Assembly (NCBI GenBank): GCA_048885185.1
Contig: JBHLQC010000002.1
Span: 1-41,798, forward strand
Direction of reading: 5' to 3'
Length of the DNA stretch: 41,798 bases
DNA from: Candidatus Odinarchaeota archaeon
Lineage (GTDB): Archaea; Asgardarchaeota; Hermodarchaeia; Hermodarchaeales; Hermodarchaeaceae
Under the pieces are notes generated by a model, which saw only the letters and a program-made list of their open reading frames with translations, searched no databases and had not been told where the DNA came from. This document shows, one piece after another, positions 5,083 to 6,816 of this stretch (position 1 is its first letter; the number at the start of each line of letters is the position of its first letter). A program made the translations under genes and the position numbers.

Positions 5083-6816
5083 GTGTGTGTACCTGTGAAG
5101 ACTAGAGCCTTATTCCTGTTACTGATACTCTGCGTTCCAATGGTTTTTGCATTTATACCACCTACTAATGCAAATTCTTCACACTTGGTTATTGCTGATA
5201 TCCAGCGTAATATCGATTTCCAGGAATATGGTTTACTTCTCATAACGGATAACCTCACCGTTATTAACTCGGGTCCCGTGCCCGCGTTTTTTGTAGATAT
5301 TGCTTATCCTATTTCTGAATTTGACAAGGTTAAGATGTTTAATGCTGTAACAGCAGATGGAACAGATCAATTGTGGGAAAGGATCACACGACTTGGCCCA
5401 GACTGCACTGGGTGGCGAGTATATCTTCCGGAACCAGTAATGCCAAACCAAACGGCTATATTCGAAACCCAGATGGCTCTGGCTGGATTAACTGCACAAG
5501 ATGGTGTTAACGCTGCTGCCACTTTTTCACCTATTCCAACCAGCCCCTATCTCATTCAAAGCTACACAACCACATTAACGTATCACACTGCATTAACTGC
5601 ACCTTCTCAAAGAGAGTGGACCGGAAGTGACGTTCAGCCCTATTCTTTTGAATATTCTACAGTTGTTCTCGATCACATTGTAAATGATTACACACCACTC
5701 ATTACGTATTTAGAGCTTAAGCGTACATATGCCATTGATGGGTGGGGCTACATTTATGCCCATGAAGAACACACCTTCCGCCTTGACAGCCCCAATCCCC
5801 GATTTGATAACGCGGAACGCTTGTGGACAAGCATCGAGATATCATTACCTCCGGGTAGTGAATTTCTTAGAACCTTTGATAATTTAGCCAACTTATCAAG
5901 AAGTCATATAACTGAACCAACAAATGCAACTCACCCGGGAACACTAAGCGTTGTTCTCGGTTATTTTCTCGAAGAAGGTGACGTTTACCAATTTTTTGTT
6001 GAATACCGAATTCCCCTCGACTTCCATCAACTTGTCCTTCAAACAGGTCAGTTTTTCAGGTTCGATCCCTATTTTGAGGAACCTTGGCTCATTGAAAATC
6101 AGATTACTGAGTTTATTCTTCCTCCAGGCAGTTGGCTGCAAGCAATTCCCGTGGGATCAGATGTTTCAATTTCTTCAACTGGTCAATATATGGTTAGTTA
6201 CCATGAAACAAATGTTACATCATTGCATAGAGCCGAGATAAACTTCAATTACATTTATCCAATCCCACCCACCCTCACTCGGCCAATGATGTTCTTCATC
6301 ATTATAGTTATCATCTCTTTGATGTATGTTGTTGTACGCCGCATTCCTTATTTCCGTGAAGAAGAGGAAGATGTTGTGGTTGTAAGGGATGTAGATCCAG
6401 TTATTCTTGGGGAATTTTGTAATTTATACGGAGAAAAGATTGCCTTGTTACTTCAAACGGAAAGGCTTGAACAAAGTATGTTACAAGGTAAAATCTCAAA
6501 GCCCAGATATCGAAAGGAAAAGAAGAATTTTGAGCGTAAGATTAGAACGCTTAATTTTGAATTAGCTAGTAGAAGTCAACAATTAATCGAGGCAGGAGGT
6601 AAGTACGAGTCTAGTTGTAACCAACTGGAACTATTAGAAGCTGAACGAATCAGCACCATTGAGGCACTCCATGCCCTCGAACAAAGATACCGTCAAAAGC
6701 GAATTACTGCCCAAGTTTATCAGAAGCTACAGAAAGACCTTCAAAAACGTCGAGATAGAGCAGTATCACGTATGGATCGAATCCTACTCGGTCTTCGCGA
6801 AGAATTAAACGAGTAG
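5083..6816 (+). CDS. Ribophorin I (OST1)-like oligosaccharyltransferase accessory subunit candidate: signal peptide, ~400-aa extracytoplasmic domain, one TM, cytoplasmic coiled-coil tail
   Basis: Signal peptide MCVPVKTRALFLLLILCVPMVFAF. IADIQRNIDFQEYGLLLITDNLTVINSGPVP resembles the ribophorin I N-terminal block (V-x-R-x-[IV]-D-L...N-x-G). KRTYAIDGWGYIYAHEEHTF resembles eukaryotic [15 protein letters not shown]. The TM is MMFFIIIVIISLMYVVV, followed by a K/R/E/Q-rich coiled coil as in RPN1. Confidence 0.6.
   Translation: MCVPVKTRALFLLLILCVPMVFAFIPPTNANSSHLVIADIQRNIDFQEYGLLLITDNLTVINSGPVPAFFVDIAYPISEFDKVKMFNAVTADGTDQLWERITRLGPDCTGWRVYLPEPVMPNQTAIFETQMALAGLTAQDGVNAAATFSPIPTSPYLIQSYTTTLTYHTALTAPSQREWTGSDVQPYSFEYSTVVLDHIVNDYTPLITYLELKRTYAIDGWGYIYAHEEHTFRLDSPNPRFDNAERLWTSIEISLPPGSEFLRTFDNLANLSRSHITEPTNATHPGTLSVVLGYFLEEGDVYQFFVEYRIPLDFHQLVLQTGQFFRFDPYFEEPWLIENQITEFILPPGSWLQAIPVGSDVSISSTGQYMVSYHETNVTSLHRAEINFNYIYPIPPTLTRPMMFFIIIVIISLMYVVVRRIPYFREEEEDVVVVRDVDPVILGEFCNLYGEKIALLLQTERLEQSMLQGKISKPRYRKEKKNFERKIRTLNFELASRSQQLIEAGGKYESSCNQLELLEAERISTIEALHALEQRYRQKRITAQVYQKLQKDLQKRRDRAVSRMDRILLGLREELNE

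Follow-up and report, generated by a model that had tools for sequence, protein, structure and literature searches.

The window analysed here (the whole stretch of DNA, 41,798 nucleotides) very probably encodes the OST1/ribophorin I of a Hermodarchaeota archaeon, orthologous to non-catalytic subunit 1 of the oligosaccharyltransferase (OST) complex. Membership in this family is shown because sequence profile, fold and domain order agree, including a cytoplasmic bundle of the RPN1 type. Ribophorin I/OST1 is a eukaryotic signature protein and has been used in the argument that the Sec61/OST/TRAP translocon predates eukaryotes. The identification is correct but ordinary, because such genes have already been published for Asgard archaea in general and for Hermodarchaeota specifically, and the current picture is unchanged by this ribophorin gene. 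What the gene adds is a clear full-length RPN1-type ortholog with a ribosome-binding-type bundle from a relative of Hermodarchaeum. Its practical value lies in the annotation, in the correction of the start codon, in a promoter/leader element that is strongly conserved, and in a lineage-restricted linkage to glycan-precursor genes. The features are collected in Table 1.

Table 1. Features of the ribophorin gene, its product and its upstream neighbours, with positions in the window
Feature	Position	Strand	Evidence
GT4 polyprenyl-phosphate HexNAc-1-P transferase (AglH/ALG7-like), 465 aa	913..2310	+	PF00953, E=8e-28
TrmB-family transcriptional regulator with PLD-like C-terminal domain	2291..3121	-	PF01978, 1e-21; PF13091, 2.6e-5
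GFO/IDH/MocA oxidoreductase, UDP-GlcNAc 3-dehydrogenase-like	3221..4192	+	Pfam GFO_IDH_MocA; NF040723
Left-handed beta-helix nucleotide-sugar N-acetyltransferase (QdtC/WlbB-like)	4189..4962	+	Hexapep, 4.8e-30
Conserved non-coding promoter/leader block	5041..5094	+	DNA alignment of 8 Hermod-type loci
Putative TATA-like TTAAATA	5041-5047	+	Within block 5041..5094
Near-invariant stretch CGTGAAA.GAATCGACAA..CGA.A	within 5041..5094	+	DNA alignment of 8 loci
Putative SD-like GGTG	5082-5085	+	Within block 5041..5094
Ribophorin I/OST1 homolog gene	5083..6816	+	ORF list, PF04597, RPN1/Ost1 profile, Foldseek
Signal peptide, residues 1-30	5083..5172	+	Model helix 5-24; N-terminal alignment
Extracellular all-beta domain, residues 31-393, acidic, two beta-sandwich halves	5173..6261	+	AF2, Foldseek
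Motif blocks in the ectodomain	5191-5283 and 5719-5778	+	RPN1 profile alignment
Sequon N270-L-S	5890-5898	+	Conserved 34/35
Sequon N377-V-T	6211-6219	+	Conserved 35/35
Single TM helix, residues 394-420	6262..6342	+	Model helix; aligns to RPN1 TM region
Cytoplasmic four-helix bundle, residues 438-577	6394..6813	+	8WHN by sequence and structure

Family identity and predicted structure

The ORF listing confirmed an open reading frame of 577 aa with a GTG start, which a first-pass annotation had described as ribophorin I (OST1)-like, and that identification holds by Pfam, by the RPN1 profile and by Foldseek. The search against Pfam PF04597 (Ribophorin_I), which the same annotation had proposed, gave a match of E=1.4e-8 and 34.7 bits (residues 37-418 against positions 3-436 of the 437-position model), above the curated cut-off (gathering score of 25) and across the whole model. 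A profile of close homologs matched human RPN1 (6s7o_E) end to end with E=1e-10 (residues 9-517 against 9-558) and yeast Ost1 (6c26_1) with E=0.0034. The alignment to RPN1 stayed collinear from the signal peptide across the two beta domains and the transmembrane (TM) helix into the beginning of the tail. Two sequence blocks had also been likened to ribophorin I: IADIQRNIDFQ...TVINSGPVP (residues 37-67) was found to fall on LINEDVKRTVDL of RPN1, and KRTYAIDGWGYIYAHEEHTF (residues 213-232) falls on the matching segment of human RPN1. Four residues invariant in a 36-sequence alignment (R42, R214, W221 and G222) sit on conserved RPN1 motifs, and the likeness of both blocks to the RPN1 segments is more than chance. 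The homolog search gave an identical set of close relatives whether it was seeded with the single sequence or with an 86-sequence alignment. The Pfam score itself is modest and many close homologs have no precomputed Pfam match; public homologs are mostly labelled 'hypothetical protein'.

An AlphaFold2 model of the protein (mean pLDDT 86.3) contains a hydrophobic N-terminal helix (residues 5-24), an all-beta region (35-391, with strands at a pLDDT of about 90), a long helix (394-420) and four helices (439-576). The model agrees with the topology that had been claimed (signal peptide, large ectodomain, one TM helix and helical tail), with an ectodomain of about 360 aa, and a type I membrane topology is predicted. 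The N-terminus carries a K/R n-region, a hydrophobic core and small residues at -3/-1, together with a conserved KTRAL-hydrophobic-PPxxA/G pattern in the N-terminal alignment, and the signal peptide would be cleaved after TNA, before N. The segment MMFFIIIVIISLMYVVV (residues 402-418) lies inside the TM helix. In the family-profile alignment N270 aligns with N299 of human RPN1, which is likewise a sequon, and the two conserved sequons would fit an exported, glycosylated ectodomain. Comparison of the model with the PDB by Foldseek, following the comparison with RPN1/Ost1 that the first-pass annotation had proposed, gave RPN1/Ost1 chains from cryo-EM structures of OST and the translocon as the eight best matches (E=3.6e-30 to 1.2e-19), with TM scores of 0.64-0.68, normalised to target length, to the lumenal and TM chains. 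The next match, with an E-value of 4e-7, lay about 13 orders of magnitude behind. M1 aminopeptidases and LTA4H, through their peptide-binding N-domains, supplied the secondary fold matches.

A surface protein with no relation to ribophorin I (for instance an adhesin, or a beta-sandwich protein of the S-layer type with a coiled-coil tail) might look like it superficially. Identity to eukaryotic RPN1/Ost1 in the structural alignments is indeed low (14-15%) and no NCBIfam model exists for the protein, which would suit such a reading. It is nevertheless extremely improbable, and is refuted by the full-length Pfam match above the cut-off, the collinear profile alignment to RPN1, and best fold matches that are exclusively RPN1/Ost1 and far ahead of the next.

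The tail is the most conserved part of the protein, with a mean pairwise identity of 0.78 compared with 0.51-0.54 in the ectodomain. It had been described as a basic coiled coil; in the AF2 prediction it is a four-helix bundle instead, and its composition is highly charged and only slightly net positive (30 K+R against 27 D+E in 157 residues). For the tail, phmmer (8whn_A, E=6e-15), the family profile (1.3e-19) and Foldseek (TM 0.91, rmsd 1.5 A) all gave matches to the crystallised cytoplasmic domain of Lokiarchaeal OST1 from MK-D1 (8WHN), with about 31% identity across 140 structurally aligned columns. That Lokiarchaeal domain bound ribosomes in pull-downs, which were carried out with human ribosomes (PMC11417166). 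The strong constraint on the tail fits a partner in the cytoplasm that is itself conserved, for example the ribosome.

Start codon, upstream block and neighbouring genes

The in-frame GTG at 5095 is the best-supported and likely start of the ribophorin gene, giving a product MKTRAL... of 573 aa, because this codon is kept as GTG/TTG among homologous loci (N-terminal and DNA alignments), GGTG is conserved about 10 nt 5' of it, and 573 aa is the most frequent length among long-form homolog calls. In the aligned DNA of 8 Hermod-type loci, with proteins about 60% identical to one another, the block that precedes this start contains long invariant runs, and its core occurs in relatives as one copy per locus, always just 5' of the ribophorin gene. 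The labels TATA box, operator and SD site are putative for this block. A coding function, as an N-terminal extension or uORF, was rejected on two grounds: the upstream ATG lacks conservation, and indel lengths do not keep to multiples of three. As a shared operator the block was discounted as well: it has no above-chance repeat in the window and a single copy per locus in relatives, and it is unlike the conserved block at 3135-3190 in the TrmB/dehydrogenase intergenic region. As an RNA element it folded no better than shuffled sequences (z=0.77), and a comparison with Rfam gave no match. A scan for sigma-70 promoters and intrinsic terminators was uninformative for an archaeon.

Neighbour identities given in the first-pass annotation were confirmed by Pfam and PDB relatives for an ALG7/AglH-like GT4 transferase and two nucleotide-sugar-modifying enzymes. 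Among PDB relatives of the GT4 protein, human DPAGT1/ALG7 is best (8e-11) and precedes MraY (1e-8). The dehydrogenase scores 350 bits against NF040723, under the equivalog cut-off of 450, and the acetyltransferase, whose gene overlaps the dehydrogenase gene by 4 nt, is closest to QdtC (3e-32) and WlbB (3mqg, 1e-20). The GT4 gene is not directly upstream of the ribophorin gene as had been stated; the opposite-strand TrmB gene and the two sugar genes lie between them. The acetyltransferase and ribophorin genes are separated by 120 nt, in which a T-run after the acetyltransferase stop is followed by the TATA-like box, and a conserved promoter that serves the ribophorin gene itself appears to be present. 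On these features a shared operon with the acetyltransferase gene was rejected, and the ribophorin gene is placed beside the glycan-precursor genes, not in an operon with them.

Proposed role and alternative readings

By homology, a cleavable signal peptide would place the acidic ectodomain, with its two beta-sandwich halves, outside the cell; one helix would cross the membrane, and the highly conserved four-helix bundle would lie on the cytoplasmic side. The TM helix and ectodomain may dock onto the catalytic AglB/STT3 subunit and a Sec61-type channel at the cell membrane, the bundle may bind the translating ribosome, and N-glycans would then be attached to secreted and membrane proteins while the nascent chains emerge. 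A Sec61-beta gene beside the ortholog in a complete Lokiarchaeial genome also speaks for this role. To our knowledge, a biochemical function in glycosylation has been shown for no archaeal OST1. Nor has one been shown experimentally, for any archaeon, to be a physical subunit of an STT3/AglB complex (PMC8993221). Ribophorin I has been reported in Hermod- MAGs, with STT3 in all MAGs of the same study and OST3/6 in several. No genes for AglB/STT3, OST3/6, Ost4/5 or Sec61 were found within the 41.8-kb window, and no convincing Ost4/Ost5-like small ORFs beside the ribophorin gene.

The protein could instead be chiefly a ribosome receptor or translocon accessory at the Sec61 channel with little or no role in glycosylation, its fast-evolving ectodomain serving as a nascent-chain-binding or chaperone platform. 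Tail conservation far above that of the ectodomain, ribosome binding by the homologous Lokiarchaeal tail, and the Sec61-beta gene that is the divergent neighbour of the OST1 ortholog in a complete Lokiarchaeial genome all speak for this, as do the FKBP prolyl isomerase that some relatives carry as an N-terminal fusion to their ectodomain and the secondary fold matches to peptide-binding domains. Against it, the same fold in eukaryotes is that of an integral OST subunit (cryo-EM chains), and the two roles are not mutually exclusive, since RPN1 does both in OST-A. A role chiefly as ribosome receptor or translocon accessory is rather improbable.

A different alternative takes the clustering as a report of function: the OST1 homolog would be specifically coupled to lipid-linked oligosaccharide synthesis, and its gene would form a co-regulated island together with those for the GT4 initiating transferase, for TrmB and for the diacetamido-sugar enzymes. 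At all 14 Hermod-type species-level loci (14/14), as far as the contigs extend, the genes stand in the order GT4 - TrmB(-) - dehydrogenase - acetyltransferase - ribophorin, and the scan of the genome collection for related loci reached Hermod-type loci only. At one further locus (L011), in an otherwise different context, a GT4 gene again lies immediately next to, and divergent from, the gene of a very distant FKBP-fused family member (22% identity), and TrmB-family genes lie beside or near the OST1 gene in four lineages. However, the whole Hermodarchaeota region is equally syntenic (RtcA, MGMT, MutS, PNP, PAC2, S17e, TGT and Lsm), so that the glycan genes are not singled out, and in six of the seven contexts outside Hermodarchaeota no glycan gene lies close by (L006 with L007 as one context, Odin L008, Loki L009, L010, Bathy L026 and Heimdall L027). 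The genes around OST1 outside Hermodarchaeota are mostly unrelated to glycosylation. The ribophorin promoter block, moreover, differs from the TrmB/dehydrogenase intergenic block and is unrepeated elsewhere. Co-transcription or linkage beyond background synteny, which would mark an agl-type N-glycosylation cluster, was not found: the gene is preceded by a gap and an apparent TATA-like promoter of its own, a gene on the opposite strand separates it from GT4, and the linkage is conserved only where the whole region is syntenic. Clustering as functional-context evidence, as put forward in the first-pass annotation, proved weak because the entire housekeeping region is conserved and the linkage is absent from most other lineages, and a co-regulated glycan island is unlikely. 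Also doubtful is a functional coupling of OST1 to the GT4 transferase and the TrmB regulator, in Hermodarchaeota and independently in the FKBP-OST1 lineage. If this were true, the GT4/TrmB adjacency, which recurs in otherwise unrelated contexts, would join the ultra-conserved block near the promoter as the first evidence from genomic context for archaeal OST1 in regulated N-glycosylation, and archaeal OST1 would be more than a ribosome tether.

Comparison with known OST1 and ribophorin I proteins

OST1 of MK-D1 (Ca. Prometheoarchaeum syntrophicum, WP_147663064.1; tail PDB 8WHN; PMC11417166) has the same domain order as the Hermodarchaeota OST1 homolog and shares with it the signal peptide, beta ectodomain, one TM helix and cytoplasmic four-helix bundle. 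It belongs to another phylum, has 607 aa compared with 573-577 here, and stands in another gene context; overall identity to Loki-type members is about 20-25%. Full-length relatives, tail included, are also found in Bathyarchaeota (TACK) as 'Ribophorin 1 superfamily protein' (for example P0058, P0205 and KYH42048.1). These cover profile positions 8-570, have a PF04597 match and are about 22% identical, with a radical SAM gene upstream and TrmB and ferredoxin genes downstream.

Among eukaryotic proteins, human RPN1 (6S7O, 6S7T, 8B6L and 8PN9) is the best fold match (E=3.6e-30), with a structural identity of 14-15% and a full-length collinear alignment that runs through the TM helix and partway into the cytoplasmic bundle. 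The human and archaeal proteins have the motifs R-x-V/I-D and R...(S/D)xWG in common, and the human protein has a sequon at N299. The archaeal protein would be located at the cell membrane, whereas human RPN1 is in the ER, and the partners Ost2, Ost48 and ribophorin II are not expected outside Heimdallarchaeia (PMC10307638). Yeast Ost1 (6EZN, 6C26, 7OCI and 8AGB) agrees with the archaeal protein in its two-domain lumenal fold and in having a single TM helix (Foldseek E=8e-21 to 1e-19; TM 0.64-0.67, target-normalised). At 476 aa, however, it has no cytoplasmic four-helix bundle; in this feature the archaeal protein is like the metazoan form, RPN1.

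Identity and domain architecture of the ribophorin I homolog

The open reading frame that the first-pass annotation assigned to a ribophorin I (OST1)-like protein exists, with 577 aa counted from its GTG codon, and all peptide strings quoted there were found in its translation. The protein matched the Pfam Ribophorin_I family (PF04597, E=1.4e-8) with 34.7 bits, which exceeds the gathering score of 25, over residues 37-418 against model positions 3-436/437. By using a profile of close homologs against the PDB, we detected the crystallised cytoplasmic tail of the Lokiarchaeal MK-D1 OST1 (8WHN, 'Ribophorin 1 superfamily protein') at 1.3e-19, human RPN1 (6s7o_E) at 1e-10 in a collinear alignment (9-517 against 9-558), and yeast Ost1 (6c26_1) at 0.0034. 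The proposed resemblance of both motif blocks to ribophorin I proved correct, the first falling on RPN1 LINEDVKRTVDL and the second on a 21-residue RPN1 segment; the family alignment shows no variation at R42, R214, W221, or G222.

An AlphaFold2 model (36 input homologs, mean pLDDT 86.3, pTM 0.62) was compared with the PDB by Foldseek. The eight best matches were all RPN1/Ost1 chains (E=3.6e-30 to 1.2e-19), from OST-A, OST-B, the Sec61-TRAP-OST translocon, and yeast OST, so that the predicted fold agrees with the cryo-EM structures proposed for comparison; the next matches, integrins and the N-domains of LTA4H and M1 aminopeptidases, reached only 4e-7. The helix and beta layout of the model bears out the topology claimed for the protein. 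The cytoplasmic tail had been described as a basic coiled coil; it is modelled instead as a four-helix bundle, and is highly charged and only marginally basic (30 K+R vs 27 D+E). It superposed on 8WHN with a TM score of 0.91 and an rmsd of 1.5 A, with a sequence match of 6e-15. Among 35 Hermodarchaeota-type sequences, the tail showed a mean pairwise identity of 0.78 vs 0.51-0.54 for the rest of the protein. The ectodomain is acidic (17 K+R vs 43 D+E) and carries the sequons N270-L-S, kept in 34 of these sequences, and N377-V-T, kept in all 35 and in 46/85 of the wider family. In the profile alignment, N270 aligns with the N299-V-S sequon of human RPN1 (UniProt P04843), in which N299 is a used glycosylation site. 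Family membership and domain architecture are established; the original observation is confirmed, and its interpretation as ribophorin I is supported.

Coordinates of features in the window and in the ribophorin protein
Feature	Position	Detail
GT4, polyprenyl-phosphate HexNAc-1-P transferase gene	913-2310	
TrmB/dehydrogenase intergenic block	3135-3190	CCTAAATTATCGTTTCGAATAAACTGGTTTAAACGTAACATCGGTAAC
UDP-GlcNAc 3-dehydrogenase-like gene	3221-4192	
QdtC/WlbB-like 3-amino-sugar N-acetyltransferase gene	4189-4962	
T-run	5015-5019	downstream of acetyltransferase stop
Non-coding conserved block upstream of ribophorin	5041-5097	TTAAATA (5041-5047), CGTGAAA.GAATCGACAA..CGA.A, GGTG, start 5095
Ribophorin gene	5083-6816 (+)	
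N-terminal hydrophobic helix	residues 5-24	AlphaFold2 model
All-beta region	residues 35-391	AlphaFold2 model
Single long helix	residues 394-420	contains MMFFIIIVIISLMYVVV; AlphaFold2 model
Four long helices	residues 439-576	after short low-confidence linker; AlphaFold2 model
Conserved gene	7885-8490 (-)	201 aa
Conserved gene	9384-10394 (-)	336 aa
Conserved gene	10530-11396 (-)	288 aa
Roadblock/GTPase trio	21946-24363	one strand
Succinate dehydrogenase/fumarate reductase and fumarate hydratase genes	25889-29181 (-), 24403-25882 (+)	
EF-G/EF-2-like GTPase gene	36949-38871	640 aa

Start codon and conserved intergenic blocks

Homolog N-termini and a DNA alignment of eight loci revealed conserved codons [G/T]TG-AAG-ACT-AGA (M-K-T-R) at 5095, with an invariant TCGGTG ahead of them. 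The commonest length among long-form homolog calls is 573 aa, and the starts of the 557/558-aa calls fall within the signal peptide. The block upstream of the gene is nearly invariant across Hermodarchaeota-type species with proteins only ~60% identical, and in most species it contains a tandem AATCGA-CA-AATCGA. A coding function was rejected because the spacing between block and start differs by 1-2 nt between loci, and an ATG at 5037 does not share the reading frame in the window and is missing elsewhere. No RNA fold signal or Rfam match was obtained. One copy is present per related locus, and no repeat was found within the window. The block is gene-specific and probably a promoter, with a putative TATA box, a promoter-proximal operator or leader, and a candidate Shine-Dalgarno site. 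Because a T-run follows the acetyltransferase stop, the ribophorin gene looks independently transcribed.

A second ultra-conserved block, unlike the first in sequence, lies in the divergent TrmB/dehydrogenase region; it is invariant in 8/8 aligned loci, had no Rfam match, and probably represents a divergent promoter that carries a TrmB operator.

Gene neighbourhood and the clustering argument

The glycan genes of the neighbourhood were described correctly in substance, except that GT4 does not immediately precede ribophorin, from which it is separated by a TrmB gene on the opposite strand and by the two enzyme genes. The best solved relative of GT4 is human DPAGT1/ALG7 (8e-11), with MraY behind. 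The dehydrogenase scored 350 bits against NF040723, under the cut-off of 450. In the light of the WbpB/WbpE/WbpD pathway, this gene and that of the acetyltransferase suggest 2,3-diacetamido sugar synthesis; no aminotransferase gene was found in the glycan cluster of the window.

Physical clustering had been offered as functional-context evidence, and the order GT4-TrmB(-)-dehydrogenase-acetyltransferase-ribophorin-PNP(-) is indeed common to all Hermodarchaeota-type loci within contig reach. However, the RtcA, MGMT, CTP-transferase, MutS, PAC2, S17e, TGT, and Lsm flanks are equally kept, so the synteny spans the whole region and provides no specific evidence. Within the block, ribophorin evolves fastest (47-64% identity where neighbours are at 59-93%). 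Elsewhere the neighbours are mostly others. The Odinarchaeia locus has glycine-cleavage genes upstream, with MGMT, CTP-transferase, and MutS farther upstream as in Hermodarchaeota; in the Bathyarchaeota locus, ribophorin is preceded by a radical SAM gene and followed by TrmB and ferredoxin genes; in the Heimdallarchaeota locus, a ferredoxin gene follows; and on a 38-kb contig and two short ones, the downstream genes are ferredoxin, HDAC-like, and Asn synthase. Outside Hermodarchaeota, GT4 (325 aa) is the immediate divergent neighbour in a single case, that of a distant FKBP-fused form of 1000 aa. These two independent adjacencies among ~8 lineages would exceed what naive chance predicts, provided that a genome has few GT4 genes; the signal is too thin for a functional claim, and clustering is weak evidence.

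Some neighbours recur across lineages. A 60-81-aa 2x[4Fe-4S] ferredoxin lies just downstream in Bathyarchaeota, Heimdallarchaeota, and further lineages (among loci L006, L007, L010, L026, and L027), a ~260-aa TrmB-family regulator is found in L006 and L026 and near ribophorin in the FKBP-fused locus L011 and the window, and a radical-SAM/HHH_3 gene lies upstream in L010 and L026. The TrmB proteins of ribophorin loci are 24-36% identical across most of their length.

Within the window, the three conserved genes between PNP, PAC2, and S17e had no significant Pfam match, yet are present in all Hermodarchaeota-type loci. An Asgard-typical trio combines a Roadblock/LC7-domain protein of 308 aa with a small Arf/Ras-like GTPase of 198 aa and an unknown protein of 294 aa. 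The gene of a succinate dehydrogenase/fumarate reductase flavoprotein adjoins that of an Fe-S subunit carrying two fused CCG domains, and both subunits of a class I fumarate hydratase, alpha and beta, are encoded alongside; the listed beta start at 25001 is probably too far upstream, since Pfam similarity sets in only at residue 99. The EF-G/EF-2-like GTPase has all five domains, with a GTP_EFTU match from profile position 54 only, and may be an EF-2 paralog.

Relation to known ribophorins

Among genome loci, the closest are those of Ca. Hermodarchaeum yapensis (92% amino-acid identity) and of other Hermodarchaeota/'Promethearchaeota' MAGs. Close homologs (47-95% identity) are mostly annotated 'hypothetical protein', and the wider family of 736 clusters at 50% identity takes in Odinarchaeia, Lokiarchaeia, Heimdallarchaeota, Hodarchaeota, and Bathyarchaeota. 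Earlier work had reported Ost1/ribophorin I and Ost3 from Asgard archaea (PMC10307638; PMC8993221, citing Zaremba-Niedzwiedzka 2017), and a study of Asgard MAGs explicitly listed ribophorin I homologs for those of Hermodarchaeota and STT3 for every MAG it covered (bioRxiv 2021.02.04.429862, 2021.04.02.438162). The finding thus correctly re-discovers an Asgard eukaryotic signature protein that was already published, also for this phylum. Ost1 was said to be absent from P. syntrophicum MK-D1 (PMC11284389), whereas MK-D1 OST1 (WP_147663064.1) was expressed and its cytoplasmic domain crystallised (8WHN) and found to pull down human ribosomes (PMC11417166); this conflict probably reflects detection sensitivity, because the Loki-type member P0069 also lacks a PF04597 match.

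The Lokiarchaeon Ca. Harpocratesius repetitus, whose genome is complete, has a Sec61-beta gene (49 aa; locus L009, 7619-7768) upstream of its OST1 ortholog (L009, 8001-9824), divergently oriented and 233 bp away, a genomic linkage of a translocon subunit with an OST subunit. In P0199 (L011, 8001-11003), P0104, and P0220 (959-1000 aa), the ribophorin-like ectodomain is fused behind an N-terminal prolyl isomerase of the FKBP type and an Ig-like domain (Big_7); no such foldase-OST1 fusion was found in the literature searched. Yeast Ost1 (476 aa) is without the cytoplasmic four-helix bundle, whereas the window protein has one, and its architecture is therefore of the RPN1 type.
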